Positions 202 through 64,000 of a stretch of 64,000 bases of DNA are shown here, piece after piece. A program made the translations under genes and the position numbers. Position 1 is the stretch's first letter; each line of letters opens with the position of its first letter. Origin of the DNA: a virus; the IMG/VR virus record IMGVR_UViG_3300032893_000025, positions 15,336-79,335 of that record; one strand, given 5' to 3'. The notes under the pieces were generated by a model, which had not been told where the DNA came from, made no database searches, and saw nothing but the letters and a program-made list of their open reading frames with translations.

Positions 202-206
202 CTAAT

Positions 207-281: not shown

Positions 282-287
282 CGATAT

Positions 288-501: not shown

Positions 502-506
502 CTAAT

Positions 507-578
507 GCACCTTTAGTATAATGGTTATTATTTTTCCTTTGTAACGAGAAGATGAGGATTCAATTTCTTCAAGGTGCT
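507..578 (+). tRNA. trnT: tRNA-Thr(TGT)
   Basis: Acceptor GCACCTT/AAGGTGC, anticodon loop TTTGTAA, T-arm GAGGA-TTCAATT-TCTTC. Confidence 0.85.
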
Positions 579-582
579 CTAT

Positions 583-653
583 GACTCTTTAGCAAAGCGG
601 ATATGCTCCACTCTTTTAAAGTGGCGGGAATGGTTCAACTCCATTAAGAGTCA
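583..653 (+). tRNA. trnK: tRNA-Lys(TTT)
   Basis: Acceptor GACTCTT/AAGAGTC, anticodon arm CCACT-CTTTTAA-AGTGG, T-arm AATGG-TTCAACT-CCATT. Confidence 0.9.
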
Positions 654-659
654 CAAAAT

Positions 660-735
660 ACTTCCTTAGCTCAGTTGGTTTAGTAGCACTTGTTTTACAC
701 ACAAGATGTCAAAGGTTCGAATCCTTTAGGAAGTA
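660..735 (+). tRNA. trnV: tRNA-Val(TAC)
   Basis: Acceptor ACTTCCT/AGGAAGT, anticodon arm CTTGT-TTTACAC-ACAAG, T-arm AAAGG-TTCGAAT-CCTTT. Confidence 0.93.
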
Positions 736-755
736 CAAAAAATTTGTGTCTCAGA

Positions 756-3700
756 TTATTTATTTATTATCTGTTGTGTCAATGACTGAATTCTTGCAGT
801 AGTATTAGTTAAAGGAAACCAATTCTTTATAGCTACCCAAGTTTTAGATTGATCCTTATAAATTCCTTGATGATACATATCATCCCCTCCTGTTATTAAT
901 GTTGTAGCTCTTGCTAGTACTTTTTCTGTATCAGTAATTACTTTAGCCATTGGTAAAGGATCTCTTAATATAGTTTTAAATTGAATAGGATCAATATAAA
1001 AATCTATATCCATCTGCATCCTATTAAGTTGATTAATCCAGAAGAAAGATAAATATTTTATATCAGATTCATCATCGTCATCATTTAAAATGACTCCTTT
1101 AATTAATAAAGCCAATGCTGTAACAGCTATCATAGACATTATTTCTGTTAAATTAGCTCTCATATTAGCAGCATCTACATCATCTAATCTAGACAAATTA
1201 GTTTTCTGAAAAGCTATTTTTCTTAGTAACTGTAATGTACCGTTAAATACCCCACCAAAGTAGCCATATCTATCAAAAAACTGCCCATAACTTCTCCATC
1301 TACCTTTCTGTTCAATACCACTAATAGGATTCACCTTACCAGCGTCCATTTGTCCAAGTCTTGTATAATATGCATTAATCATCCATTTTCTAAATACTAA
1401 TAAGGATCTTCCTAATATTGTTGAATTAGCAGGTATTGGAGAGTCTGGATCATAGTTACCATGAATATCTTTTATAACCTTATCTATCTTTAATTTAGTA
1501 TTTGCCTCTAAATTTGATGGCATTTCAACTCCATTTAATAATTCTCCATTATCATTATAAGCTTCAAATAAAGATATATCTTTTCCATTTAATTTAACTT
1601 TAGTGTTTAATAACATAGCTATCATTACAGGAGCCTGATTTAAATATTCAGATCTACTCTGTAATGTAAAGGGAGCTAACCAATTAATTCCTTTTTTAAC
1701 TCTTTCAGATACATATATTTCATTTTGTAGTTCTTTTAGAGTATCATATCTATCCATTAAATGTCTAACTTTATTCATTTGAGATAAGGTTAAGTTATAC
1801 CCTTTATGAAGCTGAGCATTATTAAATCTTCTACCATCAGAGCCTTCTATAAGATTATTAACATAGCCCACTGTGGAATTCATTATAGGGGAGAAAAAAT
1901 TCCATCCTAATCCCTTTAATCTAACCCACATATTAAGTTGGTCTCCAATTTTAGAACCTGCTTTTACTCCTCCTAATTCAGATAATTGCTTTTCTAATTT
2001 TCTATCTATTTGTAGAAATTCTTTCTTAGTTATGTTATGTTCATCAAAATCTTTTATGTTTTGAGCCTTTAAAGCCTCTATTTCTTCTCTTACTTTTTGC
2101 TCTTTGGATGTATATACTTTTTTTCCAAATTTTAATTCTACCTTATGCATAGCTTCTCCATAAAACTTCTTCATAAAATATTCTACAGAATCTTTAAAGT
2201 TATTCAATCCTTTCTTAGAGATAGGATCTCCATATTGGTCATTTATAACTTCACCAGCATTATTAGTTTCTTGTTCTAAAGCATTATTAATAATACCCTG
2301 AGTAATACTCATAGCATCCTCAATTTTAGCTTTATGTTTAAACCCAATAGCCATTAATGAATAAGCTTTTACTAGTTTTTCTAAATCATTACTTCTTTCA
2401 TTAGCAACCTGATCTTTAATTTCTCTAGTCCATTCTTGTATTTGTTCTACAGTTGGAGTATTTCCAGTTTGTTGTTTAAGTTCTAAAGACTTTCTGAATA
2501 TATAATCTTTAATTATTTTATCAATATTGGTTATATATCTTACTCTTAACTCTCTTTCTCTCTCACCTTCAACATCTCTTTTTTCACTAGATTCTGTAGT
2601 TACAGATCCTTTAGTTCTTATACTTTCTTTCCATAAATCCCATATAGGAGTTAACCCACCACTCATACCATTTTGGGTATACTGTTCTATTAAAGTCTTT
2701 TCCATAAAAGGAAGAGTATTAACCTGAAACTCTTCGGTCATATCTGATGGTAAATAAGAATTTACTTCATGTAGAGTATCTATGATATAGTTATATAAAG
2801 CTAATAGCTTATCATTGTTTTCTATTTTTTCAAAGTTTTTATCATAAAATTCAGTATTCTTGCCATTAACAATTCTTCTAGGTACAGTCTTTGTATATCT
2901 ATTGCTTGGGGTTATATAATCTCCTGCTACTTTTTGTATAGTACCTTCAAAAAAGTTTTCTGCAACTAAATAAGGACTAAATTTAGCATCATATTCTCTT
3001 ATTTTTATTTCCTTAGCAGCATCTTCTAGTAAATCATCGTCTAATTGAGATATAAAAACATCTCTATCATCTTTAAATTGTTTAAGTTGCTTTTCAGCAG
3101 CTTCTAAATAAAATTTATATCCTTTTTGTCCCAAATTAGTTATTAATTCTTGTCTGTGATTCTGTATATCACTATCACTAAAGCTATTTTCATATAAATC
3201 CTTATTGGGAAACAATTTTCTAGCATCTAACATTAGAGAGTATTTCTTAGTTTCCGTAATATAATCTCTAATAAGTTTATTTTTTTGTTTTCTTCTTTCT
3301 TCTGGGTCAGCAATTTCATCAGCAAGGTTTAATTCTTTTTTAAAATTTCTGCTTCTAGCTTTATTCCAATCGAAATAAGCTTGGGTATATCTATAAGTTA
3401 AATCTCCAGTTTTCCTATTATCTGTATTACTTGCTCTTTGAGCAAACAATTCATTAATATCCTTTTTACTATAAGATTTACCTATTTCTTTAAATACATC
3501 ATCTAAACCATCAAATACATACTTAGCTTCTTTATGTGTTTCAAAGCTTGCTTCCTTATTCCATACAAACATACTTTTAGCTAAGATATTATCTGTTTCA
3601 CTAATATCTAAAGTAAGACTTGTTAATTTACCAACATCTGTTAGTAAAGCTTTATAATCAACATTAGCATCTTCTCCCCATTTTTCTTTAACTTTATCTT

Positions 3701-4352
3701 CAATTTTACTTTGAGCTATTTGTAACCATTTATTCCATAATCCCTCAGCCTTGGCTTGGTATCTTTTTAATTCTTCTCCTATAGGATACATTAAAGTATT
3801 CTTAGGGTCTTGTATTTGCTTTAATTCATTTTCATCGAAGAATATATGTCCTTCTTTAAAATCACCAGCAGCCATCCACAATCTTATAGGTCTTTTTATA
3901 TTAGTTAAATCCGATAAAGAAATATCCTTTTTATCTAATATTTTTCCTACTTCTTCTATATCTTGTTGAGCGAATTTTAAAGAATCTTCTAATACCTGAG
4001 ATTTAGAAAGTTCTCCTATTTTAGTATCAGTTTCTTCAACCTGTTTCTCAAGATAAGAAACTTCTTTATTGAGTTTTAATTTTTCTTCTCCAGATTTATC
4101 TTTAAGTTCAGCTCTTTTTGAACTTATTCTTTTGTATAATAAACTTTTCTTTTGTTGTAAATTATCTATAATAGTTTGAAATCTTGGTTTTTCAGTTTTA
4201 GCCTCAATTAAACCTTCATCAACGAGTTGTTCTAATGAAGGTATCTCTTCTCCATTAGCTAGCCATAATCTATAACTTTCAGCATCTGAACCAGTGATTT
4301 TAACTAATTTCTTCCATTCAGGAGTATTGCGATTTGGACATTTAACTGCCAT
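756..4352 (-). CDS. Large virion cargo/ejection protein (crAss-like, RNAP-associated block)
   Basis: 1198 aa, helical; N-terminal CPN..TPEWKKL motif; hydrophobic helix near the C-terminus; last gene of the giant-protein block, directly after the RNAP gene. Confidence 0.7.
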   Translation of the reverse strand: MAVKCPNRNTPEWKKLVKITGSDAESYRLWLANGEEIPSLEQLVDEGLIEAKTEKPRFQTIIDNLQQKKSLLYKRISSKRAELKDKSGEEKLKLNKEVSYLEKQVEETDTKIGELSKSQVLEDSLKFAQQDIEEVGKILDKKDISLSDLTNIKRPIRLWMAAGDFKEGHIFFDENELKQIQDPKNTLMYPIGEELKRYQAKAEGLWNKWLQIAQSKIEDKVKEKWGEDANVDYKALLTDVGKLTSLTLDISETDNILAKSMFVWNKEASFETHKEAKYVFDGLDDVFKEIGKSYSKKDINELFAQRASNTDNRKTGDLTYRYTQAYFDWNKARSRNFKKELNLADEIADPEERRKQKNKLIRDYITETKKYSLMLDARKLFPNKDLYENSFSDSDIQNHRQELITNLGQKGYKFYLEAAEKQLKQFKDDRDVFISQLDDDLLEDAAKEIKIREYDAKFSPYLVAENFFEGTIQKVAGDYITPSNRYTKTVPRRIVNGKNTEFYDKNFEKIENNDKLLALYNYIIDTLHEVNSYLPSDMTEEFQVNTLPFMEKTLIEQYTQNGMSGGLTPIWDLWKESIRTKGSVTTESSEKRDVEGERERELRVRYITNIDKIIKDYIFRKSLELKQQTGNTPTVEQIQEWTREIKDQVANERSNDLEKLVKAYSLMAIGFKHKAKIEDAMSITQGIINNALEQETNNAGEVINDQYGDPISKKGLNNFKDSVEYFMKKFYGEAMHKVELKFGKKVYTSKEQKVREEIEALKAQNIKDFDEHNITKKEFLQIDRKLEKQLSELGGVKAGSKIGDQLNMWVRLKGLGWNFFSPIMNSTVGYVNNLIEGSDGRRFNNAQLHKGYNLTLSQMNKVRHLMDRYDTLKELQNEIYVSERVKKGINWLAPFTLQSRSEYLNQAPVMIAMLLNTKVKLNGKDISLFEAYNDNGELLNGVEMPSNLEANTKLKIDKVIKDIHGNYDPDSPIPANSTILGRSLLVFRKWMINAYYTRLGQMDAGKVNPISGIEQKGRWRSYGQFFDRYGYFGGVFNGTLQLLRKIAFQKTNLSRLDDVDAANMRANLTEIMSMIAVTALALLIKGVILNDDDDESDIKYLSFFWINQLNRMQMDIDFYIDPIQFKTILRDPLPMAKVITDTEKVLARATTLITGGDDMYHQGIYKDQSKTWVAIKNWFPLTNTTARIQSLTQQIINK

Positions 4353-4367
4353 AATTCTAATTTTCTG

Positions 4368-4398
4368 TAAATTTACCTACATTTTTTCATTCTATCAA
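4368..4398 (-). promoter_or_regulatory. Bacteroidota sigmaA-type promoter (variant -7)
   Basis: TTG-N20-TAAATTTA immediately upstream of the ATG at 4352. Confidence 0.45.
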
Positions 4399-7300
4399 GT
4401 ATTTCTTCATTAGAAATTAAACTTATTTTATCTTTTAAATTTAACTCTCTCTGATCTAACTTGATATAATAATATTCTTTTTTATTATTTAATCCTATAT
4501 CTTCTCCTACAGTTGTTCCTATAGTAGCTTTATATAAGACTTGTTCTTTATTAATAGTTTGTGCCCTTTTAAGCATTGCTTTATATCTATCACCGTTGCT
4601 AAATCTATCATCAACCATTAATACTTTTTGCCTACCATCAGAGTTTAATTCTCCGAATCTATTTAAAGTATCTTCTTTACTTATTGTATTAGGTAATAAA
4701 TATACTTCTCTATCAGTTATTTTAGATAAATCTATCTCTCTCCATTGATTACCATATTCATCATTAATAATTTTAACATTGTCTTTACCAAATTGTTTCT
4801 CTAATATATTACCTACTTTAATTTCATAGAAAGCTTCAATAGGTTTGAGTTTTTCTATACCTTGAGATTTAAATTCAGCTTTTTTATCTTCTAGTCTTTT
4901 TATTTCACTAGGAGCTTCTTTTATTTCCCCAATTTTTTGATTTCTAACTGATATTTTATGTTCAAGAGCAATTACTTTTTGCCTATCTTCAACTAAATAT
5001 CTGTCACTATTAGAAGAATTATTAAATATTGCAATAGCTTCCTCTCTGGTGATTGGTAATATTTTAATTTGAGGTTTATTTCTTTCTGTATTATATCCAT
5101 GTATATAATACCCTTCATAATTTTCACCTAATGCATCTCTATGCTCTTGGTATGAATCATAACCAAAATAGGATTTATTATATATTTCTTTTCTACTATA
5201 AGTACTTTCTACTCTAACATAACTATAATCTTCAAATCCATATTTATTTGCAGTTTTTCTATCTACAGTTGGTTCTTGAGTTGTTAAATTGGAACTAAAA
5301 GTCTTTTTTAAAGTAGTTATTTCTTTACGAAGATTGTTTATCTCTTCTTCTAATCCTGGTATAGAATCTTCCTTACCTAAAAATGTTTGTGTATGTTCTA
5401 TAGCTCTATTTATATTTAATATCTCATTGGCCAATGTTTCGTGTCCTTCTACTTTAGCAGCAGTTTCACCTTTAGGAAATAATACTTTCTCATATCCTTT
5501 CTTAGCACTATCTTGAATAATAGATTTAATAAAGAATGTAACCCAGTTATTATCTTTGTTAAGGAGTTGGAGAAATTGATTTTCTGGACTATTATCAGAA
5601 ACAAAGTTCCATCTTTCTTTACCGGTTAAAGATTTATAATCTCTACCTTTCTGAAATAAATCAGATTGTATTTCTAATATACGTCTATCTTTAGTTATAT
5701 TCCCACCAATAGTATTTCTTTTAGTTCTAGGTTCACCTGTAGATAAATCTGGTTCCTCATCAGTAGTAATAGTAGCATTGTTTACTTTAGTATCACTTCT
5801 AAACCAACCTATACCTTTATCTGTACTAAATTGAGCATGCCCTTTAATATTAGGTGTAATTAATGGAGTAGATATTTCATTTTCAGTATAGTTAGTACCG
5901 CCCGGTACTGTTAGATTTGAATAATAAGATGTAGATTGTTGATTCTTATATCTCTTAGATTCTAAGTAAGTTTCAGCTTCTTTTCTTGTATTAAAAGAAA
6001 TATAAGCTCCATCATCTTCTTCAACAATATACTCAGTTTTTATAATTTTCCCTTCTTTATCTTTAAAATGCGATTCTTCTATGTTTCCAGTAAGAGAATC
6101 AAACTTTTTCTTAGCAGTATTAACTTCAACAGTATAACTATAATTAGCAAGAATAGAAGATATAATTTCTTCTTTGGTCATTCCATCTTTAGCAGATTCT
6201 TTGAACATATCAACCTGTTCTTTAGGAACTCCTTGTTTCTGAAGATCGTTTAACCAACCTTGTAATTTAGAAAATTCAAATTTATTACGTTGAATATTTT
6301 GTAAGCCTTTTATCAATTTTAAAGTATAACTAATAGCAGCTTCGTTAATTCCAGGATATAATGTTTCTATTGTCTGGCCTTCTTGTGTGAAAGCTTGAGT
6401 AGTATCATGTTCAATAATAGTTAATACATCATCTATAGCGGAAGCTAACATAGAGTTTTTATTTACATTTAATCCTAAAGCATTAAAGAATTGTTTTAAT
6501 TTATCTAAAAATACTTCAAACCAAGGTTTGCCTTCACTATTCGCAGGTATTTCATTAAGTATCTTCTGAAACTCACCATCAGTCATTAACATAGTTACAA
6601 ATTCTTCTAAATTTGTAGCTCCATAATATTTACTTAATTCTTCATCAGTCATAGATTCATACTTCTCAGTTCTTTTAGCTATAAACTTATCCATAACTTC
6701 TTTAGTAATGGATGATTTATGCCTATTAAAACTTTGATTTAAGCTATCTATAGCATCTTTAACTTTAGGATCTAGTTTTTCTCCTTTACTCCAAGCTTGA
6801 ATAGCAGGTATAGTAAATCCATGCAATACTTCATGTAATACAGTTTTACTTAATTCATTTACTGAAGTATGTTTTTCATTATCTAAATTAATTTTTACAG
6901 TACCATTAGCATATCTTCCTCTTACTTTTTCAAGTTCTGTAGATAATCTTAAATTTCTATCTCCGTAATTATTTAATAGTTCAGACGCTAATAATTGATA
7001 ATATTGGTCATCTGAATTAATAACTATATTTTCAAGTACCCTTTTAACATTACCTTTATCAACTATTTCAAGTATATCTCCAGGTTTCTTAACTTTAGTA
7101 GATTCTGGATTAATTGTAGTTTCTGAATAGTAGTTGTTATCTATTGGAAATCTTGAAGTAGATTTACTAACTTCAGCTTTATTTGTGTTAGTTATAAAAC
7201 TTGAAGTAGCTACTTCATCAGTATTAGCATTAAATTCATCTATACCGTTAAATCCTAAATTATCTACTCTAAAATACATAGGGTAACCTAAAGAATCATT

Positions 7301-10300
7301 TCTTCCATAATATCTAAATAATACATTCTTACTACTTCCTTTAGGTTTCATAGGATCATTAATAGCTAAAAATTCAGGAGGAACTTGGTCTTGCCCTCTT
7401 TTAACATAGAAATCATCATTCTTTAAACTAAATCTTGTAATACTAACTCTTCCTTTTGGTAAGTTTTTATCCTTAATTACATTATCTATATCCTTTGTTC
7501 CAACTCTTTCAACCTTATCAGCATTATGTTGTATATACTGTTCGATAAAGTTCTGTAACATCCAGTAAGGTAATTCAAATGAAGGAATCTTCATAAAATC
7601 TGAATCTTCGAATTTCTTATTAGAGTATAATTCAGATAAACTATCAGCAAATCCTATAGAATATAAATAAGATGGCGGTATGTGTTTAATATATTGAGTA
7701 GCTTCTTGTACACCCCCAGACAAATAAGCTGCTTCAACTAAGTCTTTGAATAACTTTCTTGTAGTGTAATTAGTTCCTTCAATAGCAGTATCATTCGTAT
7801 ATAAATCTATAAAAGAAGTATATGTAGCTAAATTAGCAGCGTCATCTCTTACAGCATCTATTTTAATTGTAGATGGTCTACCATTCTTATTTATATCAGG
7901 TTGTACTTTACTTAAAAAAGGATGATCTTTATATTTAGATTGAGCTTTTACTTGTTTAACTATAGAAGCTAAAGATTTATTACTGTCGCTATCTATAAAT
8001 AATCTTTCTCTTTCTAAATTAAGATCTCCTCCAAATAATCCTAAATTATTTAATGTATACAAATAAGATTTAAAATTATTCCATATATCTCTTCTAAAAT
8101 CAGCTTTACTAACTATACTTCTGTCTTCTCTACCAAGTAATTGTTCAATCTTGTTAAACATGTAAGTTATACCTTGTTCATTATAAGGTAGAAGTTGTTT
8201 CCACAGTTTATTATTTTGAAGTAACCCATAATATGTAGAAAAACCTTGGATTGTTGTTGGTTTAATTAAATTTCCTAAATTATCAAATTCTCCCAATATA
8301 GATTCTATATTTTCTATATTCACACTTTGTAATCTTTTAACTGCTTCTTCTTTAGATAAAGTTTCAAATAAATTCTTACCCAATCCTTTACTATCTGTAT
8401 TAATAGCTGATTGTATAGTACTTAAGGTTTGAGATGGTTTATCTAAATAAAGCATTTGATCTAAAGCAGTCAATTGTATATAATTAAAGTCTCCTGTTGG
8501 TTCTAATATAGAATTCTTTAAATTCTCTAAAGACAATCCTTTTCCTTTACTATATTTTTCATCATATAAATTACTATCATAATTTGTAGGTCTATATTTA
8601 GATAATATTTCTGAATATACTTCATTTTCTATATTAGGATTAAACTCTTTAATAGAAGATCTTTTAGATTTAAGTAAATTAAAGTAATCTTTTATAATAG
8701 GTTGAGCCATAAAATATCCGACTTCTTCTTCAAATCCTAATTGTGCTAGTAAGTTAGCATACCTAAAAGTTTGAGAATTTAAATTAAGTTTATCTAATAC
8801 TTGTAACTTTTCATTGTCTACAGATACAGACTGAAGACCTGATATAATTTCTGATTTATAATACTTACCACTTAATGTTTTATTTCCACTTAAATCTCCA
8901 TCAGATACTTTGTTACCAAATCTAACTCTAAATCTTTGTTTAATTCCTTCTGGAGTATTATAGAATAAATACATTCCTTTATCCTGTATAGCAGAATTAA
9001 ACATAGATGCATTACTTGTTATACCAGTACCAGATTTACCAGCTAATGCATTAAATCTCTTAGTCATTTGGTACTTATCTGATAAGGCAGTGAAGTATTC
9101 ATCTTTAGTCTTTTTATTCTGAATTTCTTTAGCTATTTCTTCGAACTTCCATGAACTTAAAGGAGTGTGTATTTGTTTTTGAACTTCTTGATTAATGTTT
9201 TTATGAACTGCAAGTCTTATATCTAATAGTTTGTTTTGTAGAGATTTGTTCCATACATCATCAGCCATTTCTAAGAATGATGCTTGTCTATTAAGTTGTC
9301 TACTTTTTCTTTCATCAAGTTCAAAAGCTAAATTTCTTAAAGTAGATTCTTCTAATTTTAATATATCTTCCTTAGAACTAAAATCTATCTTTTCTAACTT
9401 TTTACCATTAAGGTAAGTATTATACATATAGGTGTATAACTTATCCACATCAAAGTCAGAACCCATCTGAGCCAAGTAATCTCTTGTAGTAACAGCTATA
9501 TCCCCAGATGTTTTAGGTAAAAATCCTACTATTTCAACATAACTTTGAGAGTTTAATCCTTGATTAGGAATACGCATACCAAAGATTTGCAATATTTCTT
9601 CAGGTAATTTAGTCATATCTATTTTCCCATCTTTCACAAACCTATTTATATCTAATAAATTTCCATTATTATCTTTAAATTTCCAAGGTATTAGTATTTG
9701 TGCTGGTAATACCTTACCTTTTTCTACTCGAGATGGTAATAATTTACCTGTCCATTTATCTGTATAAATAATTCCTTGAATATCTTTAGAAGCTTCTTCA
9801 TCTACAACTTTAGCTTTTTGGTATCCTTCCTCTGTAGATAATACAAAAGAATTACCTTTAAACTTCATTTTTAGTACTCTATTCTTAACAATAGCGTTAA
9901 GTAAAGCTTCATATTTAATAGCTGAAGGACTATAAGGTAAGAAAGTTAAATACTTATCCAATTCTATACCTTCCATATCAGCTATAGAATACCCTCTTAA
10001 CATACCTTCTTCCTTAAGAATATCTCTTATTGCAGGTATATTTAAATTTCCAGACTCATCATAAACTTCTTTTTTTAAACCTTCAAATCCATTCTTATAA
10101 AGTTGTTCATAATGTTCTTGATAAATCTTTTCTAAATCTCTTCCTTTGTAAGAATTATTATTATATTCAAATCCATCTATATCATGTAAATTAGTAAATA
10201 TATTCTTATCAGCCTGAGAAACCCTATTAATAGCATCTTTAAGTTCATCATAGGGAACATCTTGTTGCAATCTAAATCCTTTTCTACTAAGTATTTTAGT

Positions 10301-13300
10301 TGAATTATTTATCTCTTCAGGTGTTAATTCTTTTATATTATTATCAGAATCCCATAATTTAACAGGAGTTTTATAATTTCCTGCTTTAATACCTGATGAA
10401 AAAGCTAATCTTTGAATATTATTCTTTTCCATCATTATTCTAATCTTATCTAAATCATTACCTTTAGTAAGTTCAGGGGTTAGCGGATAAGCAGATGTTT
10501 TAATGTAAATTCTTTCTCTTATACCAAGTTGTTGATTAAACTGATTATTTACATATACAGGTTTATGTACTTGATACACTAAATTTTCCCATTCTTTATT
10601 TCCACTTAATTCTTTATTTAGTGCTGAAGTATAGTAATAATCACCCTGGGATATTTTTTTCTTAATAAATTTAGTTGCTGCTTTGTACAAATCTTCACTA
10701 ATATTTCCAGATTTAAATTCTACATATAACCATTCGGGGAATGTAGTCCATTCTTGCGCATTTGTACCTTCTTTTAAAGTTCCTGTAGCAAGATAGTCCT
10801 TTGCTCCATCTTTTCCTAAAAGTTCTTGTAGTTGGTCTATATTTAAAGAATTTATAGCCCTATCATCTACCATTAATTGTCTGTAAAAACCTTTATTACT
10901 ATCAGCTATTTCAGTACCAGGAGCTATATCAGCAGCTAATCTCTTACCTACATTAATAAAAGTATCTTCTACTTGAGATAATATATTTGTTGCTTTTGAT
11001 TTGTAAAATAAAGCAGGATCTCCAACAATACTCATAAAAGTATTAGCATTACCTATTAGATACTGATAAACCATATCTGTAGCAATAGCTTTATTGTAGT
11101 TTTCTTTAGCTACTCCAAGTAATACTTTTTTATCTTGTAATACAGTAGTATCTATAAAGTTTGATTTATCTCCGTCTATAATACCATAAGAATTCCAATC
11201 AGTTAATTTTTCATTAACTAACTTATCTACATACTCTTTTATAGTATCCTTTAAAGTTGTATTCCATTTATCAGAGAATATATCAGAGTTTAAATTATCA
11301 TTGGAATCCCAAATATCTTTTAACTCGTTTAATTTTGGAAGTAGTAAAAATTTATGCCCACCTTGTTCAAATTCTTTATTATTAAATTCTACACCAGATT
11401 TCTTCAGTTCTTCCCATTTTCTTATTCTATTTATTTCAGGTAATACTAATTGGTCATATAAAAAATCTATACTATTATCTTTTAAATTTCCATCAGTAGT
11501 AAAATTAATAGGGGCTGCAATAGTTTTAATTGTCATTGCAGTAGTTTTATCTGATGTAGTAGGATACAATAGTATTATAACTCTACTATCAGTACCAGAA
11601 TTATCAGGTATAGATCCTGTTAGTAATCCTAACGAAGTTAATTCATACTCATCAGGATTAAGATTATATAATTCTCTTCCATCCCTTGTTTTAGTACCTA
11701 TTTTTTTAAAGGCTTCTAACCCTATAGTTCCAGCTTCAAAATTAGAATTAAACACATAGTTTCCTTCTCCTATATTATTTAACCACCAACTTTTCTTTTC
11801 AAATGGACTATTAGAATCAAGTATTTCTTTAGCTAAACCATTTTTAAGATCTCTTACAGTGTTGATTAAGTATTTATTTTTTCCAAAACTATAAATACTT
11901 TTACCGCCACTTCTAAAAGCATTGCTAAATACAGCGTTGTCATTATACTTAGCGTCCATTCTGGCTAAACTCTTTATAACACTTTCGTCTAAAATATTAT
12001 GTTCATCTAATGATAATTTACCTTGAGTAGTTAGTGCTTTATTTAATACATTAAATACAAAGTAATTATCTAATAATAATTTATCAAATTTAACAGTATA
12101 AGGTGCTCCAAATCTATCAGTTCTTTGTATACCTTTAGACACTAATTCATTCCAAGTTTGATTATTAATACCAATACCAAATTCTTCTAACCATTTTCTT
12201 GCATCATCAGTATTTTTAGATTCTTTTATCTTTTCATATCTATCTTTTAATTCTTTAACTTTATTTTCATCTAATATATATTGTCCTTCATTGTTAACTT
12301 TAAATAATCCTGTTTCTTTAACATTAGTATTCCAGTTATCAAGTACTGCATTATATATAGAATTCTCATTAACCAAAATAGTCTTTGTAGAATATTTTTT
12401 GGTTTCTTTATCCTGTGACCACATTACCATATAATGTTTTATCTGGTGATTAGTCATAGATGTTACAAAACCATTTTTTTCCTGTTCTTTAGATGATTCT
12501 AATTTAGTAATAACTTGTTCTACCCAAGGATGTGCTTTAGTATATTGTCTTAATACATCTGTAATTTGGTTAAAATCTGGTTCTAATCCAGCAGTCCAAG
12601 TTTGAAGTTTTTCATAAACTTCATTAAAATCCATTACTTCAGCTTCTTTAAGAATACCATATACAGGATTCCCAGAAGAATCTACTTTATTAATATCTGA
12701 AAAAAATCTCTTAACTTGTTGGGTTAAACTATCTTTAAGGTTGTGTTCGTAACTATTTTTATCCCAATCAGTTTTTTCATTATCTTTAGTTTCAGATATT
12801 TCCATATCTTCACCTTCAGGTAATGGAGTAACTATTCCTTCAATCTTATTAACTTTATAAATAACAGATCTCTCTATTACATTCCATTTATCTATAATGG
12901 GTTTAAAAAATTGATCTCTATACTTAATTTGTATAGGCTCTAATTCATTATCAGAATATTTATTAAGTTCTGATAAATCATCTTCAAATTGAGTTTTATA
13001 TTTATTTAAATAATCATTTCTAAGCTTTACAATATCTTGAGTAGGATTGTTGTATAAGTCTCTAATTATATTTCTTGTAATATGATTAGTAATAGATTCT
13101 TGTTTATAAGCTCCTAACTCACTAATTAAAAGTTTATCTGAAGACTTCTGCATTAAAGACTCATCCCCAACAGTAGTTGGTAAATCAAAAGCACTTTCAT
13201 TGAGATTGGTCTTAAGTTTTAACTTATTTTTCGTCTCAATTTTAGTAGATTTTTCAGACGAAACTTTAGTTTTCTTTTCTTCTATTTCTGGTGTTACTTC

Positions 13301-16300
13301 CTTACCTAATATATTACTATAATCTACTCTTACTACAGACTGTACTGCATAGATTCTTTTACCATTATCTAATTGTTGTCCTTTTACATTTGTCTTAGAA
13401 GTATTATATAAAAAGGTTTTGTAAGATATTGGACTGATTTTATCATCTTGTCCAATAAATGCAATATTTTGTGTATTGTTAAAAGCATTTAAATTAGTAT
13501 TAATTCTAAACTTATGTAAATTTAAAGCAAGTTGTCTTAATACCATTTCTTTATGTTCCTGATTTTCTTTATTAAGGAAGTAAACTTTTTGTTCATCTTT
13601 TTCATTTAATAAAGCAAACTCAATAGAACCTTTAACTGTTGTATAATAACTTCCTTTAGGAATATTATTTATAATATCTTTTAAATTACTTTTCCCAGTA
13701 TTATACCCATGAATAAATAATTTAATATAGTTATCTAATCCTCTTATATCAGATATGTCGTAACCTGTTATTTCAAGAACTTGTTTAACTACTTCAGGAT
13801 TTTCTCCAGATAAATAAGCATCTATAGCTTTTATTATAGATAGTTTAATTTGATTACTATATTCACTATTACCTATAGTATCTTTAAACACAGGATAAGC
13901 TAGCCTTTCTCCATTTTGCAATGGTAAAACTACATAGGTAGCACCACTAACCAATCCTTTAGAGTTACTTAAATCTTCTCTATAATTCTTTAAATCTCCT
14001 GTACTAGTAGCTATATCAATAACAATATTATCATTACCTAACGATTCAGTTAAATTAACTGTTTGCCCTTTAGTAAGAGTAAATAATTTACCGGAAGTTT
14101 TATCTGTTATATTTGTTTTAAAAGATCCATTTTTAACTATATAATCTCTTATAAGTTTTAAATTTTCTTTATCTTGGTCTAAATCTCCATAAACATTGGA
14201 ATCATTAATCCATTGTTCTGTATGTAAAAAAACATTTGTAGGATTGTTTTTATAGTATACTCTTATAGGAACAAGACTATTATATTTTTCAGGAGATAAT
14301 TTACCTTTTACAGAACCCCAGGTAACAGTTTTATTACTTGTTATGTCTTCTGTATATACTTCTATCTCAGGGTTATCTTCCAATCTTAACTCTACTTCAT
14401 CCCCAATATTAAAATTATCTGGGTCTAATATAACCTGATCTGCATTAGTATGCAATTCATTATTTACATTAGTTTTATATAGTGTTCCTAACATTACTCC
14501 TCTTTCATAATCTCTGGATAAATAAGCTAGAGCATTATACCCATCAGTTATTTTCTTTCCTTCATACACAGGAGTACCATCAAAATCTTTAGTTGTAGCA
14601 TAATTAGAATTAGAAACTTCTCTAACTATATCATCACTACTTGTATTTATTTGTTTAACTTTAGATTCATCAATATATTCTGGGTCAATAACTACTTTAC
14701 TATTTTCTTCAGTATCTACTTCATCTATTTCATTTTTAGTAACTGTTACAGGAGCAACTCCACTAGATATTATATTAGCAGTATGAATAGATCTATCTAA
14801 AGAAGATGAATAAACTTTAGGAGTTATCCCTAATTTATTATGTAAATCATTGGCTTCTTTTATACCTCTTTTATCTAGTTGTGCGTTATCACTTCTAAAG
14901 TTTCCTTTTTTATTATCTTCTGTTTCTCCATGTCTTACTACATGAATAGTTTTACCAGTATTCGTAGTTATATCAAATGTACTACCTGTATTACTATCCA
15001 TTTCTGAATATTCTTTTCTAAAATTTTTATCAGATAAAAAATCTACATTTTCATTATTATTCCAATATCCTTTATCTTTTAACAATTTAATTAAGTTAAA
15101 TATAGTATTATGAGTGGTAATAGTACTATTATTTTCTCCTTTATCTATAATATCTTTTACAACTGAAGTAACTCTATTATATGCATTGGAAAAACTTTCT
15201 CCTCCGCCTATCATAGATTTATCAGGATTATTAATTATATTATCTTTTACAATATTATCTTTTTCTTTTGTTTGTTTGGTTCCCGTTTCTGAACCTAAAT
15301 CTATAGTGTCTAATCTATTATCTACTTCAACATTATTATTTGGAGTAATTTTATTTATTTTAGGTTCTCTAGTTATAGGAATAGAAGTTTCTTTGGATTC
15401 TTCTTCTTGAGCCATTCTATCAAATTCTGCTGAATTCTCAGGAGAAATACCTTTTTCTGCTTCTTCTTGTTCTAATATAGCATCAAAATCATCCTTTTGT
15501 CTTTTCTTGTTTTTAATATTTTCAACTTTAGCAACCTTTTCCTGGCTCTTAATAGTTTCTTCAGTTTTATTTTGTGTTTCAGATGCTCTCTTATTATAAT
15601 TATCTGTAGTTTCTGTAACTCTTTTTTCAATTCTATTTAATCCTTCTTGAGTTATAGATTCTTTATAGGCATTTGCTAATTGAGTTCTCTTATTATTTAG
15701 TTGTATATAGTCTGTAACTAATTTAGTAGCATTTTCTCCTGTAGACTCTAAATTAATTGCATGATCTTTTACAACCTTATCTAAATTATCTAGGTTTTCT
15801 TTAGTTTTATTTAGTAAATAAGTTTGAGTAGCACTAAATATTTCAGGAGATTTAGCAATCTGTAAATTTAATTCTCCAATTCTTTTATTTACATTATCTA
15901 TGTTTCCAGCCATATCCCATAATACAGTTCTTGCATCATTAGAAATAGTAGGAAATCTTAAATCTAAATTTTCTTTAAGTTTTGTTAAGTTTTTAGCTTC
16001 GGTTATTAACTTATCTATATATTCTCCAGTACTTTTTTTATCACTAGTAGTAGGATCAATACCAAAAGTTTTTTCAAATTCTTCTTTGGGCAATTGTTTT
16101 AAATCATTTAATTCATCTTCAATTAAATCTCCTTTACCGGTTTCAATTCTACTAAGTACATAGTTTTTAAATAAATCATGTTGCAGATTTTTATATTGGT
16201 AAATATCCCCAGACTTTATAGCTTCATCCATATCTCTTCCAATAGATTCGGATCTTATCGCTTCATCTATTAAAGGTTCATTCTTTTTAAATATATCTGA

Positions 16301-17701
16301 AACTTTATATTTATTAAGATAATCTACTGCATTTTTAGTAGCTTCATCTTTTTCTCTATTCTCTTTTAATTCCTCTTTTATTTCTCCAGTAGCAACTCCT
16401 GATAATATACCAGTTAACCCCCCAAGAATCATTGATTCTACACCACTTTTAGTACCAAAAGACTGATTAAACCCATAACCTATAGAGTTTAATTTATCTG
16501 CAAATGTATTTCTAGCGGGGTCATCATACTTTCTAGTCCAATAATCTGTAGATGCGTTTTGTGCAATAGTTTGCATATTTTCTTCATTAGACTCCGTAAT
16601 AAGTCCTTTAAAGTATGGAGACAGTTTATTAAATTTTGATGTAGGTTCAGGAATAAAAGTTCCTTCAGCATCTCTAGTAATGCCATTTAATAATGCTTTG
16701 CTTTCATTTTTAGCCCCAGACAATATTCTACCAAATTGTATATAATCAGATGCACCTAATATTGCTAAGTTAGTTAAATAATCAATATTACCAGCAGCAG
16801 AAGAATATTTATCAATTTCGTTTAACTCCTCTGCATTAGGATCTCTTTTATTCTTTTCTTTAAAATGATTTATTATTTCTTCTGTGGTTTGTTGTTTAGT
16901 TTGTAATCCTTCAAAAGATGCCTCATTACCAGCAGCTATTAAAGTTGATCCTAAAGTTTGTATACCATTTGTTAATTTAATTCCTTTGCCTACTTGATTT
17001 AAAGCTCGTGTAAAAGCTTCATCCTCTCCAACCCCCTGTTCAACTAAACTACCTGCTAATTTATTTACTGCTGCCAATTCTTCTTCATATTTGCCAGCCA
17101 TTGCTAATTTGCCTAAAGCACTTAATCCTCTACCCATTACAGCACCAGATCCAATAGCTCCTACTGTAAATCCTGCATTCTTTAATAATTTATCTGCTAA
17201 AAAATTAACTGTAAACCAGTTATTAGGACTAAAAGCATCTGCATTCTTTTCTTTATCTGTATAATAATTAGGAAACCATTTTTCCATATTCTTACTAAAC
17301 TGGTCATAAGCATTACTTATAGGATTATCGTATACTTCTGACAAAGCCTGTGCTTCAGTTTTATTTGGATTAAAGGAATTTACTATCCCAGAAAGTATCC
17401 CATAAGGTAAACTTGTAACTGTTGTAGCAAAAGTTGTGGCAGCCAACCCGGCACCTTTAATAACACCATTAGCAAATTGTTCCATTGCTGGTTGTCTTGT
17501 TCCTCTAATATCTTCTATATTGGGGAGATCATATACAGTAGTATTTAAATCAAATTTAGTATTTAATGTATCTCCAATATACTCTCCTTGAGAATCTTTG
17601 TTATTATAATTACTTATAATACTTTTATAATATTCTGTTGGGAAAATTGAAGGTTCTTCCTTACTTCCGTAAAGAGAATCGTAGTCTATATTATTAGGCA
17701 T
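4373..17701 (-). CDS. Giant virion-packaged DNA-dependent RNA polymerase polyprotein (two-barrel, crAss-type) with zincin protease and other accessory domains
   Basis: 4442 aa; RIPNQG and catalytic GSDFDVDK motifs (9443-9457), as in crAss-like virion RNAPs (DFDID in phi14:2); HEVLH..E zincin motif (6821-6835); RHGET histidine-phosphatase motif (14927-14935); hydrophobic Gly/Ala-rich N-terminal region. Confidence 0.92.
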   Translation of the reverse strand: MPNNIDYDSLYGSKEEPSIFPTEYYKSIISNYNNKDSQGEYIGDTLNTKFDLNTTVYDLPNIEDIRGTRQPAMEQFANGVIKGAGLAATTFATTVTSLPYGILSGIVNSFNPNKTEAQALSEVYDNPISNAYDQFSKNMEKWFPNYYTDKEKNADAFSPNNWFTVNFLADKLLKNAGFTVGAIGSGAVMGRGLSALGKLAMAGKYEEELAAVNKLAGSLVEQGVGEDEAFTRALNQVGKGIKLTNGIQTLGSTLIAAGNEASFEGLQTKQQTTEEIINHFKEKNKRDPNAEELNEIDKYSSAAGNIDYLTNLAILGASDYIQFGRILSGAKNESKALLNGITRDAEGTFIPEPTSKFNKLSPYFKGLITESNEENMQTIAQNASTDYWTRKYDDPARNTFADKLNSIGYGFNQSFGTKSGVESMILGGLTGILSGVATGEIKEELKENREKDEATKNAVDYLNKYKVSDIFKKNEPLIDEAIRSESIGRDMDEAIKSGDIYQYKNLQHDLFKNYVLSRIETGKGDLIEDELNDLKQLPKEEFEKTFGIDPTTSDKKSTGEYIDKLITEAKNLTKLKENLDLRFPTISNDARTVLWDMAGNIDNVNKRIGELNLQIAKSPEIFSATQTYLLNKTKENLDNLDKVVKDHAINLESTGENATKLVTDYIQLNNKRTQLANAYKESITQEGLNRIEKRVTETTDNYNKRASETQNKTEETIKSQEKVAKVENIKNKKRQKDDFDAILEQEEAEKGISPENSAEFDRMAQEEESKETSIPITREPKINKITPNNNVEVDNRLDTIDLGSETGTKQTKEKDNIVKDNIINNPDKSMIGGGESFSNAYNRVTSVVKDIIDKGENNSTITTHNTIFNLIKLLKDKGYWNNNENVDFLSDKNFRKEYSEMDSNTGSTFDITTNTGKTIHVVRHGETEDNKKGNFRSDNAQLDKRGIKEANDLHNKLGITPKVYSSSLDRSIHTANIISSGVAPVTVTKNEIDEVDTEENSKVVIDPEYIDESKVKQINTSSDDIVREVSNSNYATTKDFDGTPVYEGKKITDGYNALAYLSRDYERGVMLGTLYKTNVNNELHTNADQVILDPDNFNIGDEVELRLEDNPEIEVYTEDITSNKTVTWGSVKGKLSPEKYNSLVPIRVYYKNNPTNVFLHTEQWINDSNVYGDLDQDKENLKLIRDYIVKNGSFKTNITDKTSGKLFTLTKGQTVNLTESLGNDNIVIDIATSTGDLKNYREDLSNSKGLVSGATYVVLPLQNGERLAYPVFKDTIGNSEYSNQIKLSIIKAIDAYLSGENPEVVKQVLEITGYDISDIRGLDNYIKLFIHGYNTGKSNLKDIINNIPKGSYYTTVKGSIEFALLNEKDEQKVYFLNKENQEHKEMVLRQLALNLHKFRINTNLNAFNNTQNIAFIGQDDKISPISYKTFLYNTSKTNVKGQQLDNGKRIYAVQSVVRVDYSNILGKEVTPEIEEKKTKVSSEKSTKIETKNKLKLKTNLNESAFDLPTTVGDESLMQKSSDKLLISELGAYKQESITNHITRNIIRDLYNNPTQDIVKLRNDYLNKYKTQFEDDLSELNKYSDNELEPIQIKYRDQFFKPIIDKWNVIERSVIYKVNKIEGIVTPLPEGEDMEISETKDNEKTDWDKNSYEHNLKDSLTQQVKRFFSDINKVDSSGNPVYGILKEAEVMDFNEVYEKLQTWTAGLEPDFNQITDVLRQYTKAHPWVEQVITKLESSKEQEKNGFVTSMTNHQIKHYMVMWSQDKETKKYSTKTILVNENSIYNAVLDNWNTNVKETGLFKVNNEGQYILDENKVKELKDRYEKIKESKNTDDARKWLEEFGIGINNQTWNELVSKGIQRTDRFGAPYTVKFDKLLLDNYFVFNVLNKALTTQGKLSLDEHNILDESVIKSLARMDAKYNDNAVFSNAFRSGGKSIYSFGKNKYLINTVRDLKNGLAKEILDSNSPFEKKSWWLNNIGEGNYVFNSNFEAGTIGLEAFKKIGTKTRDGRELYNLNPDEYELTSLGLLTGSIPDNSGTDSRVIILLYPTTSDKTTAMTIKTIAAPINFTTDGNLKDNSIDFLYDQLVLPEINRIRKWEELKKSGVEFNNKEFEQGGHKFLLLPKLNELKDIWDSNDNLNSDIFSDKWNTTLKDTIKEYVDKLVNEKLTDWNSYGIIDGDKSNFIDTTVLQDKKVLLGVAKENYNKAIATDMVYQYLIGNANTFMSIVGDPALFYKSKATNILSQVEDTFINVGKRLAADIAPGTEIADSNKGFYRQLMVDDRAINSLNIDQLQELLGKDGAKDYLATGTLKEGTNAQEWTTFPEWLYVEFKSGNISEDLYKAATKFIKKKISQGDYYYTSALNKELSGNKEWENLVYQVHKPVYVNNQFNQQLGIRERIYIKTSAYPLTPELTKGNDLDKIRIMMEKNNIQRLAFSSGIKAGNYKTPVKLWDSDNNIKELTPEEINNSTKILSRKGFRLQQDVPYDELKDAINRVSQADKNIFTNLHDIDGFEYNNNSYKGRDLEKIYQEHYEQLYKNGFEGLKKEVYDESGNLNIPAIRDILKEEGMLRGYSIADMEGIELDKYLTFLPYSPSAIKYEALLNAIVKNRVLKMKFKGNSFVLSTEEGYQKAKVVDEEASKDIQGIIYTDKWTGKLLPSRVEKGKVLPAQILIPWKFKDNNGNLLDINRFVKDGKIDMTKLPEEILQIFGMRIPNQGLNSQSYVEIVGFLPKTSGDIAVTTRDYLAQMGSDFDVDKLYTYMYNTYLNGKKLEKIDFSSKEDILKLEESTLRNLAFELDERKSRQLNRQASFLEMADDVWNKSLQNKLLDIRLAVHKNINQEVQKQIHTPLSSWKFEEIAKEIQNKKTKDEYFTALSDKYQMTKRFNALAGKSGTGITSNASMFNSAIQDKGMYLFYNTPEGIKQRFRVRFGNKVSDGDLSGNKTLSGKYYKSEIISGLQSVSVDNEKLQVLDKLNLNSQTFRYANLLAQLGFEEEVGYFMAQPIIKDYFNLLKSKRSSIKEFNPNIENEVYSEILSKYRPTNYDSNLYDEKYSKGKGLSLENLKNSILEPTGDFNYIQLTALDQMLYLDKPSQTLSTIQSAINTDSKGLGKNLFETLSKEEAVKRLQSVNIENIESILGEFDNLGNLIKPTTIQGFSTYYGLLQNNKLWKQLLPYNEQGITYMFNKIEQLLGREDRSIVSKADFRRDIWNNFKSYLYTLNNLGLFGGDLNLERERLFIDSDSNKSLASIVKQVKAQSKYKDHPFLSKVQPDINKNGRPSTIKIDAVRDDAANLATYTSFIDLYTNDTAIEGTNYTTRKLFKDLVEAAYLSGGVQEATQYIKHIPPSYLYSIGFADSLSELYSNKKFEDSDFMKIPSFELPYWMLQNFIEQYIQHNADKVERVGTKDIDNVIKDKNLPKGRVSITRFSLKNDDFYVKRGQDQVPPEFLAINDPMKPKGSSKNVLFRYYGRNDSLGYPMYFRVDNLGFNGIDEFNANTDEVATSSFITNTNKAEVSKSTSRFPIDNNYYSETTINPESTKVKKPGDILEIVDKGNVKRVLENIVINSDDQYYQLLASELLNNYGDRNLRLSTELEKVRGRYANGTVKINLDNEKHTSVNELSKTVLHEVLHGFTIPAIQAWSKGEKLDPKVKDAIDSLNQSFNRHKSSITKEVMDKFIAKRTEKYESMTDEELSKYYGATNLEEFVTMLMTDGEFQKILNEIPANSEGKPWFEVFLDKLKQFFNALGLNVNKNSMLASAIDDVLTIIEHDTTQAFTQEGQTIETLYPGINEAAISYTLKLIKGLQNIQRNKFEFSKLQGWLNDLQKQGVPKEQVDMFKESAKDGMTKEEIISSILANYSYTVEVNTAKKKFDSLTGNIEESHFKDKEGKIIKTEYIVEEDDGAYISFNTRKEAETYLESKRYKNQQSTSYYSNLTVPGGTNYTENEISTPLITPNIKGHAQFSTDKGIGWFRSDTKVNNATITTDEEPDLSTGEPRTKRNTIGGNITKDRRILEIQSDLFQKGRDYKSLTGKERWNFVSDNSPENQFLQLLNKDNNWVTFFIKSIIQDSAKKGYEKVLFPKGETAAKVEGHETLANEILNINRAIEHTQTFLGKEDSIPGLEEEINNLRKEITTLKKTFSSNLTTQEPTVDRKTANKYGFEDYSYVRVESTYSRKEIYNKSYFGYDSYQEHRDALGENYEGYYIHGYNTERNKPQIKILPITREEAIAIFNNSSNSDRYLVEDRQKVIALEHKISVRNQKIGEIKEAPSEIKRLEDKKAEFKSQGIEKLKPIEAFYEIKVGNILEKQFGKDNVKIINDEYGNQWREIDLSKITDREVYLLPNTISKEDTLNRFGELNSDGRQKVLMVDDRFSNGDRYKAMLKRAQTINKEQVLYKATIGTTVGEDIGLNNKKEYYYIKLDQRELNLKDKISLISNEEILDRMKKCR

Positions 17702-62521: not shown

Positions 62522-62552
62522 TTGCGTATATTATAAAAATATATTAACTTTG
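62522..62552 (+). promoter_or_regulatory. Bacteroidota sigmaA promoter (divergent, + strand)
   Basis: TTG-N20-TAACTTTG. Confidence 0.55.
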
Positions 62553-62703
62553 CAAGACCCAATTGCAGAAAGACTATTTAATATATTATATTATATTACT
62601 TTAATAATAGTATGTAATTCTTTTCTTTGGTACTTTCTTTTCTTGTAAAATTTTTTCCTTGATTTTACTATCTTTGATACCTATTTCTTAAATACTTTTC
62701 CTT

Positions 62704-62751
62704 TATCGGGTAAAAACACGATAATTTAAAATATCGGGTAATTAGACGATA
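62704..62751. repeat. Two 20-bp palindromic direct repeats (operator-like)
   Basis: TATCGGGTAA-aaac-ACGATA (62704-62723) and TATCGGGTAA-ttag-ACGATA (62732-62751). Confidence 0.75.
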
Positions 62752-62951
62752 TTACTTATAATAAAAAGTATCAATATTCTAAAAAAATTTTTTATAATTT
62801 TTTTTAAGTAATTGAAAATGAGATGTAATATTTTTTTATAAAAAATTTTTAAATAGATGAATGTTTAAACTAACTACAACTTACCACCTCCTCTCAGCTT
62901 TGATTGGGCTCCTACTGGGGCCTTTGGATGTCTAATTTAAAACATATTGCC

Positions 62952-63212
62952 ATGAAATTTGGGAAAAAACTTAGCGTTGTTGCATTCAAGGAATTGCACA
63001 AAGCTGATAAACTGGATATTGTGAAGAACCCCAAAACTGATAAACTATTTGTCAGTGCTAACGGTTCTACTGTAGCATCAGTAAGTAAAAACTACGATTC
63101 TACCAAGGATAAAGAGTTTGTAGAGTTATTGGTTGAAGATGAAGAAGGCACACCCAAAACTATTTGGTGTTTGCATAATCCATCCGATGCAAATGTTGTA
63201 GAAACATTGTAA
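62952..63212 (+). CDS. First early-region protein (crAss-like)
   Basis: 86 aa from the ATG at 62952; FKE......DIV.NPKT.KLF...V...LH motif; followed by a terminator. Confidence 0.7.
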   Translation: MKFGKKLSVVAFKELHKADKLDIVKNPKTDKLFVSANGSTVASVSKNYDSTKDKEFVELLVEDEEGTPKTIWCLHNPSDANVVETL

Positions 63213-63216
63213 CATT

Positions 63217-63254
63217 GAAAGGCTGTACCTTAATTGGTATGGCCTTTTCCTTTT
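63217..63254 (+). terminator. Intrinsic terminator
   Basis: GAAAGGCTGTACC-TTAATT-GGTATGGCCTTTT followed by CCTTTT. Confidence 0.75.
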
Positions 63255-63291
63255 GGTTAATAAATCAATTTCACATTTAAATCTATATATT

Positions 63292-63537
63292 ATGTCAACA
63301 ACGTTTGGAATTAAGTTACCTAATGGTAATATAACTAAGGTAGCTTTTAGACATGGAATAGGTAATAGTAAAGTACAAATAGATATATCAAATCCTTTAG
63401 TACAATTATTGCCAGGTGAAACAGAATTAATTGCTATAGATAACTCAAATCAAGGCATTAGCACTGTTAAAGATCTGTTAGAAAAAGACTCAAATAAAAT
63501 AATACAATTTGATTCTGATAGACCTTACAATATATAA
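63292..63537 (+). CDS. Hypothetical early protein
   Basis: 81 aa from the ATG at 63292 (MSTTFGIK...IAIDNSNQGI.TV.DL). Confidence 0.65.
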   Translation: MSTTFGIKLPNGNITKVAFRHGIGNSKVQIDISNPLVQLLPGETELIAIDNSNQGISTVKDLLEKDSNKIIQFDSDRPYNI

Positions 63538-63539
63538 AT

Positions 63540-63744
63540 AATACCTTAGAGTTAACTAACTGGTTTGGTCAGACCAGTAGATTCACAAGACCATATACAA
63601 GCCTAGTTATGAGACGTGCTTATTTAACTGATATTGGTAGCAACATTATATACTAAACTGCCCTCATAGCAGAGTATATATAGCATAATTCCAATTAGTA
63701 CAGATTAAATGGACAGTATAAATGGTGATTAACTCTTTGGTATT
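63540..63744 (+). ncRNA. Candidate structured ncRNA (multi-stem, pseudoknot)
   Basis: ORF-free gap whose ends pair (AATACC-TT-AGAGTTAA / TTAACTCT-TT-GGTATT), with five further helices inside and a 6-bp loop pseudoknot. Confidence 0.6.
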
Positions 63745-63774
63745 TCTTTTGTAACTAATTAAAACTTAAATAAT

Positions 63775-63969
63775 ATGAAACTGTTAGATATTTTTTTGAT
63801 TGCTTTATTGCTTCTTTTTATTGGAGTTTTATACTCTGTTAAAAAAGATTCTGTATACAATATTATACATTCCCGTACCAATCTTAAGTATAAAGTATAC
63901 TATGAGTATAATGTTTATAACTTGCAGGATACTATTCCAGTAGACACTGTATACATTAAAATTAAATAA
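63775..63969 (+). CDS. Small membrane-anchored protein
   Basis: 64 aa; N-terminal TM helix; DSV, DTI and DTV sequons. Confidence 0.6.
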   Translation: MKLLDIFLIALLLLFIGVLYSVKKDSVYNIIHSRTNLKYKVYYEYNVYNLQDTIPVDTVYIKIK

Positions 63970-64000
63970 TATTTAGGGTAGTTAGAACTTAACCTGTATA

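Follow-up and report, generated by a model that had tools for sequence, protein, structure and literature searches.

The window analysed here spans 64,000 nucleotides, from base 15336 to base 79335, of an IMG/VR record 79.3 kb long, which comes to an end 256 nt past the element that is the subject of this work. The terminase of the phage matches its counterparts in the crAss-like phages cr111_1 and IAS virus at 44% identity. This match, together with a portal gene, a giant open reading frame of 4442 aa and seven tRNAs, places the phage within the Crassvirales. The giant ORF (4373-17701, minus strand) is unusually long, even beside the giant proteins that crAss-like phages package in their virions. 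The sequencing runs that contain the sequence are wetland metagenomes, with no RNA run listed among them.

The element sits in a rightward arm of small genes (Table 1) that starts at an AT-rich divergent control region, which fits the early-region setting proposed in the initial annotation. At the head of the arm are two TAnnTTTG motifs, of the -7 type found in Bacteroidota. They lie about 260-380 nt 5' of the first gene, a distance that implies a long AT-rich untranslated leader. The same region holds the twin palindromes (62704-62751) pointed out in the initial annotation. Directly upstream of the element itself, no host-type TAnnTTTG promoter is found in any of the three homologues. None of the proteins neighbouring the element has an informative Pfam or PHROG annotation. 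The gene immediately upstream, encoding 81 aa, belongs to a family present in 78 aquatic phage loci, and six of its proteins, when aligned (alignment A1), share 25 invariant residues, again with no Pfam or PHROG annotation. Most relatives that carry this gene lack the element and have their next gene only 0-50 nt further on; the element is therefore not common to the neighbourhood as a whole. A closer relative is represented by a 683-nt ENA contig carrying P0004, a neighbour protein at 90% identity.

Table 1. Features of the small-gene arm around the element (window coordinates).
Feature	Position	Strand	Remarks
TAnnTTTG motifs (Bacteroidota -7 type), two	62545-62552, 62669-62676	+	head of rightward arm
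94-aa gene	62928-63212		first in local order before terminator
Intrinsic terminator, strong	63217-63248		13-bp stem, T-rich tail; from terminator scan; 3' of 94-aa gene
81-aa gene	63292-63537		start MSTTFGIK; directly upstream of element
P1 5' strand (AATACC-TT-AGAGTTAA)	63540-63555	+	pairs with 63729-63744
5' core	63556-63592	+	CUA, P2, AGAU junction, UCACAA, GACC
P2 hairpin	63559-63578	+	within 5' core; invariant GGUC loop at 63567-63570
UCACAA	63583-63588	+	within 5' core; candidate 5' strand of Pc
Invariant GACC	63589-63592	+	end of 5' core
Variable inner arm	63593-63717	+	distal half of P3, all of P4-P6, both halves of the pseudoknot first proposed
3' core (ATAAATGGTGA)	63718-63728	+	UGGUGA (63723-63728) is candidate 3' strand of Pc; contains mini-ORF ATG
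P1 3' strand (TTAACTCT-TT-GGTATT)	63729-63744	+	pairs with 63540-63555
U-rich tail (TCTTTTGT; TCTTTTG)	63745-63752	+	after P1; from sequence
64-aa membrane-like ORF	63775-63969		next ORF after element

The gap between the flanking reading frames (63538-63774) had been described as free of ORFs, and it is: no ORF of at least 30 aa exists on either strand. A coding reading of the gap was rejected, as stops interrupt every frame, whether the code is the standard one or one in which TGA or TAG does not end translation. Folded as RNA, the 205 nt from end to end of the closing stem P1 attain a minimum free energy of -49.7 kcal/mol (z = -3.0), and 0 of 200 dinucleotide shuffles are as good. The minus strand of the same 205 nt folds almost equally well (z = -2.9). 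P1 consists of 6 bp, a 2x2 U.U mismatch and 8 bp, and P2, in the window copy, is a hairpin of 8 bp without mismatch, capped by a GGTC loop. The initial annotation saw here a nest of helices, P1 to P6, crossed by a pseudoknot between CTCATA and TATGAG. Its strings and coordinates are correct throughout, and the helices and the complement are literally present, as is a U-rich tract 3' of P1 (the corresponding tract reads ACTTTTAT in the homologue L225 and CTTATAAC in L007). P1 with its tail was considered as an intrinsic terminator and rejected: the scan that flags the terminator 3' of the 94-aa gene does not flag it, and the arms of P1 stand 173 nt apart in the window.

The 3' core contains an ATG, from which a mini-ORF of 10 codons, MVINSLVFLL*, runs through 63722-63754. 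The same frame is open from the ATG in L225 (17 codons) and in L007 (22 codons), and both its length and its sequence diverge after about six codons from one version to another. Since nucleotide changes in the mini-ORF are matched by compensating ones in the 5' strand of P1, RNA pairing is a likelier constraint on this stretch than a peptide.

Five versions of the element are known, three full and two partial. Apart from the window, full homologues occur at syntenic spots in L225 (2911-3063, 153 nt) and in L007 (501-620, 120 nt). In L007 the element comes after a copy of the 81-aa gene at 71% identity. In L225, where there is no 81-aa gene, it is preceded by a copy of the 94-aa gene, at 71% identity, and by that gene's terminator. 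The L225 hairpin at 2784-2812 is the equivalent of the window terminator, which means that the element always lies 3' of a terminator in those versions that have the 94-aa gene. The element is co-oriented with the flanking genes at all loci, which represent three phage lineages. The genes downstream are unrelated from one locus to another; L225 has no further ORF for about 290 nt.

The two partial versions are strain variants from metagenome contigs. In X2, a wetland contig of 184 nt, the whole 81-aa gene is replaced by 15 nt. The contig is at similar depth, and the gene (63280-63537 region) is a presence/absence polymorphism. X2 retains 63538-63592 with five changes, then has an unrelated 40 nt in place of 63593-63717, then resumes with 63718-63747. 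X3 retains 63541-63592 with three changes, continues with 62 other letters and resumes at 63717; its downstream gene differs from that of the window. Neighbours and interior are thus exchanged while the element survives, the mark of an autonomous module.

The L225 phage offers several other stem-closed gaps in its small-gene arm. One, on the same contig (L230, 9863-9983), is an intergenic module with a perfect 14-bp inverted repeat, AAGCTACTTAACTC / GAGTTAAGTAGCTT, and TTTTAT after it. Its match to R1, the covariance model built for the element, is no better than E = 1.7. Just downstream of the element in L225, at 3090-3160, is a pair of AT-rich palindromes, TTGATTAGTAATTAATCA / TGATTAGTTATTAATCAA, a 29-nt inverted repeat. 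These look like operators and recall the twin palindromes at the head of the arm in the window.

What evolution has kept can be judged from an alignment of the three full versions (A5: window, L225, L007), trimmed flush to the closing stem. The aligned part of P1 (63544-55/63729-40) forms 12 bp in all three, and at 7 of the 12 pairs both sides have changed in compensation. In P1 94% of the alignment cells are paired. For the whole model the figure is 88.7%, compared with 24-45% when the partners are slid out of register, and none of 500 shuffles reaches the observed values on any measure. P2 persists as a hairpin in all three versions, always with GGUC in the loop and always with a U.G pair; it has two pairs with double changes, and internal mismatches in L225 and L007. 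Comparison of the homologues thus strongly supports P1 as a helix and lends moderate support to P2. That the element is a truly conserved base-paired structure is very probable.

Within the stem, the 37-nt 5' core (P2 with its invariant loop, a conserved GUAGAUUCA, and GACC) is 76% identical to the window in L225 and 70% in L007. The flanking coding genes give 78% and 71.5%, so that the core is, by nucleotide identity, about as conserved as the genes next to it. The 3' core, 11 nt in length (AUAAAUGGUGA), is with its immediate border (63716-28) 85% identical in L225 and 62% in L007, and the contigs of X2 and X3 cover it with no mismatch. Its TAAATGGTGA is identical in L225 and reads AAACGATGA in L007. 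Across the arm (63593-63715), identity is 48% in L225 and 27% in L007. The arm also differs in length, about 80 nt in L225 and about 50 nt in L007, and it is replaced by unrelated inserts of 40 nt in X2, 62 nt in X3 and about 50 nt in L007. The mosaics formed by the strains break exactly at the borders between core and arm. On this comparison, the conserved unit is a closing stem of 12-16 bp with a core of about 50 nt, and the inner arm is freely swapped between strains and seems to be dispensable.

This has consequences for the fold first proposed. The phage does have a nested fold, of which only the base has been kept in evolution. The architecture of about 205 nt is not supported as a unit: the distal half of P3 and all of P4-P6 are specific to the strain and are replaced in the variants, and P3 as drawn is not in register across the homologues. 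The pseudoknot has the complement claimed for it but not the conservation. L225 lacks a 35-nt block containing TATGAG (63608-13) along with the 5' strands of P4 and P5, so that the partner is lost, and the loop sequence differs there as well. A match of six nucleotides between a loop and AT-rich sequence is by itself unremarkable. Only the helix at the tip of the arm survives in L225, where the CUGC/GCAG of the window has become CUGU/ACAG.

How the base of the molecule is arranged can be modelled in more than one way. RNAalifold brings UCAYMA of the 5' core together with UGRUGA of the 3' core as a helix, Pc, that stacks on P1, and one of its pairs reads C-G, U-G and U-A in the three sequences. 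The stack of P1 and Pc would amount to about 18-22 pairs, in the range of the stems of some 20 bp or more that RNase III cuts. In this model Pc and P2 could make a three-way junction in which the GGUC loop may reach the GACC just beyond Pc. GGUC:GACC is therefore a candidate pseudoknot, distinct from the one first proposed, and since both of its strands are invariant it cannot covary. Forcing Pc costs +1.8, +5.7 and +5.2 kcal/mol over the nested minimum in the three sequences. This is energetically unfavourable within the nested model, so Pc is kept as tentative. In the minimum-energy folds of L225 and L007, GGUC and GACC instead form a plain helix that encloses the conserved GUAGAUUCA. P3, Pc and GGUC:GACC are mutually exclusive pairings. 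In either model of the core, as predicted for the three sequences, the base of the molecule would be formed by conserved nucleotides that are mostly unpaired.

The structure might act as RNA or as DNA. The pairs of P1 are all Watson-Crick, with no G.U, and P1 alone cannot separate RNA from single-stranded DNA; G.U pairs do occur in P2 and Pc. The z-scores of the plus strand are -3.0, -2.85 and -1.44 (window, L225 and L007), against -2.9, -1.75 and -0.66 for the minus strand. The arms of P1 are 100-170 nt apart across the versions, a spacing that rules out cruciform extrusion from duplex DNA. A palindrome bound by protein and the ends of a MITE were both rejected, as the stems change sequence and covary. 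Taken together, the shared orientation with the genes, the better fold of the plus strand, the G.U pairs in P2 and Pc, the spacing of the arms and the covariation make RNA the better reading.

The element was sought well beyond the loci in which it was found, and it is rare. A blastn search with 63200-64000 found no match in 50,697 phage records. Exact-motif scans of IMG/VR, of JGI metagenomes and of prokaryote genomes returned the L225 contig and chance hits, the latter removed by requiring co-occurring motifs and by R1. The search of about 0.4 Mb of relatives' loci with an nhmmer profile of the 5' core and with R1 gave no more members, nor did R1 when run over five whole viral records. Each genome has one copy. 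When the phage's own genome was searched for sequence complementary to the inner arm and to the X2 insert, no significant target came up.

Rfam 15, searched at E ≤ 10 over 62800-64000, L007 and L225, gave only chance-level hits, the best at 22 bits (the cut-off being 55.8 bits), and none of them was shared between any two of the three homologues. The initial annotation had called the element undescribed and had recognised in it no hammerhead, twister, pistol or tRNA; indeed neither the Rfam models nor ARAGORN find any at the site. ARAGORN reports no tRNA or tmRNA near 63540, and the seven tRNAs are all at 50-736. Given no Rfam family and a covarying P1, the annotation withstood the comparisons that were made. 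Its observation was partly confirmed and its interpretation partly supported. What emerges is a genuine new family of structured RNA, uncatalogued and rare, in environmental crAss-like phages.

What might such a molecule do? The reading favoured here is a stable early non-coding RNA, though it is held with less than even confidence. It would be a modular RNA, read on the plus strand within the rightward and presumably early transcription unit of small genes. The 12-16 bp of P1 would clamp the 5' and 3' ends together and present, on that clamp, P2 with its GGUC loop, the single-stranded GUAGAUUCA, GACC and the 3' AUAAAUGGUGA. The clamped, U-tailed molecule would then be released from the early transcript or stabilised within it, and the core, probably in the form of a three-way junction or a GGUC:GACC pseudoknot, would bind a factor of the host or of the phage. 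The distal arm would be dispensable or fast-evolving, exchanged between strains. Transcription, processing, action in trans and the partner are all supposition drawn from the sequence. That the genes downstream differ between loci argues against a regulator acting in cis on a specific gene. Against the favoured reading count the absence of a TAnnTTTG promoter just 5' of the element and the terminator scan's silence on P1 with its tail. Perhaps the core, by means of the invariant GGUC and GACC, captures a host protein (a defence or RNA-processing factor, Ro/Rsr-like proteins being present in Bacteroidota) while the arm diversifies under the selection of an arms race. This extension, which would turn the element into a small RNA decoy or guide that is reprogrammed by exchanging a cassette on a constant scaffold, is improbable.

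A humbler role, unlikely though less so than the capture of a host protein, would be that of a cis-acting element for processing, stability or insulation of early mRNA, akin to the RNase III sites of T7, with no product acting in trans. On this reading cleavage of the stem, or its resistance to exonucleases, would separate the neighbouring cistrons and make them more stable. The position of the element between co-oriented genes and its long irregular stem fit this well, as do the further intergenic modules closed by inverted repeats on the L225 contig (e.g., L230 9863-9983), and a purely structural role would tolerate swaps of the arm. A site defined by structure, however, has no need of a largely unpaired core of about 50 nt kept at the level of coding genes, and most relatives with the same neighbour gene do without the element, their next gene following at 0-50 nt. 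A leader that regulates in cis is less probable than either, be it a switch of the riboswitch kind, a processive antiterminator or a leader-peptide switch from the conserved AUG. The element does follow shortly after a strong intrinsic terminator in L225 and X2, its pairings P3, Pc and GGUC:GACC exclude each other, and in all versions an AUG preceded by A-rich sequence opens the same frame. Alternative pairings of the UGGU/ACCA repeats could, on this improbable reading, gate translation of downstream early genes or read-through into them. The genes to be gated are unrelated across loci, though, with the next ORF of L225 about 290 nt off, and the mini-ORF differs after about six codons, with compensating changes in the 5' strand of P1.

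Action at the level of DNA has a lower probability still. The element would then be a module boundary prone to recombination, or a hairpin in single-stranded DNA serving as promoter or priming signal for the virion RNA polymerase. The virion polymerase of the crAss-like phage phi14:2 transcribes denatured DNA in vitro, and in favour of this reading the early promoters of crAss-like virion polymerases show no sequence motif (bioRxiv 10.1101/2020.03.07.982082). It would also be congenial to it that in the window there is little to choose between the folds of the two strands, that P1 has no G.U and that strain mosaics break exactly where core meets arm. However, the arms of P1 are too far apart (100-170 nt) for cruciform extrusion, L225 and L007 fold better as the plus strand, and P2 retains a U.G pair. 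With its core mostly in the 5' half, the element is moreover asymmetric, unlike palindromes bound by protein, and its single copy per genome speaks against a MITE. Very improbable, finally, is an undescribed kind of small ribozyme that cleaves itself, built of a conserved junction or pseudoknot core and a variable peripheral stem. Small ribozymes are common in intergenic regions of phages, and the closing stem, the hairpin with an invariant loop able to pair with an invariant tetranucleotide further 3' and the arm of variable length resemble theirs, but hammerhead, twister, twister-sister, pistol, hatchet and HDV models give no match even at E ≤ 10.

The matter is of some consequence because crAss-like phages are among the most abundant of viruses, and their early programme is driven by an injected RNA polymerase. 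The element has a core, a covarying stem and natural variants with swapped arms, in a molecule small enough to be probed for structure, used in pull-downs and mutated. Should a host factor bind the core, the element offers a tractable entry to RNA-based takeover of the host, or to counter-defence, in the Crassvirales; if it binds none, it still adds an uncatalogued family of RNA.

Several known systems bear comparison with the element. In shape it is like the msr-msd of retrons, P1 enclosing P2 and a long arm as the a1/a2 terminal repeat would. The likeness is one of shape only: the neighbours of the element are small phage ORFs, and RVT_1 (PF00078) is found neither in this genome (82% complete) nor in the L225 record (45% complete). 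With no reverse transcriptase in these parts of the two genomes, the retron reading fails. A MITE or other insertion element was likewise rejected, given a single copy per genome and a P1 that differs in sequence and covaries between homologues. A mimic of a CRISPR repeat was sought in 185,579 prokaryote genomes. The strict exact scan for the core motifs found no match, and the relaxed exact-pattern scan gave 22 single-copy matches, none of them in a CRISPR array and none scoring with R1.

Y RNA and YrlA (RF00019 and related families) share with the element an end-to-end stem, a conserved module near the base and a variable distal part. The UGGUC...GACCA motif of the element recalls the Ro-binding helix of Y RNA, but UGGUC and GACC lie inside the 5' core rather than in the terminal stem. 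There is no Rfam hit to Y RNA or YrlA at E ≤ 10, and no TROVE gene in the record of this genome or that of L225. The control search for TROVE does match B. thetaiotaomicron, and Bacteroidota can thus encode Ro/Rsr.

GOLLD (RF01998) and ROOL (RF03087) are, like the element, structured RNAs borne by phages and found by comparative analysis. They have 500-800 nt and multiple domains, the element being far smaller, and neither gives anything in the window at gathering score or any hit over the element at E ≤ 10. The RNase III hairpins of T7 early genes are also long, irregular intergenic stems in an early polycistronic unit. Those sites, however, are simple hairpins of about 60 nt set by the shape of the helix, whereas the element has a partly unpaired core conserved in sequence, a side hairpin and a swappable arm.

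The nearest precedent in biology is phi14:2, a crAss-like phage of Cellulophaga. Two of its early intergenic regions (g004-g005 and g005-g006), about 700 nt each, yield abundant and unusually stable non-coding RNAs (bioRxiv 10.1101/2020.03.07.982082). At the level of sequence there is no resemblance: the nhmmer profile of the core has no hit in g004-g006, blastn finds only chance words there, and R1 has no hit at E ≤ 5 in bases 1-7000 of phi14:2 (L231). The phi14:2 regions have been shown to be transcribed and their RNAs to be stable, whereas the element, at 120-205 nt, is a predicted RNA. The two are nevertheless alike in being non-coding, in lying where the early arm, directed rightward, has its first small genes and in being co-oriented with those genes, and the element would be a compact representative of this kind of crAss-like early non-coding RNA.
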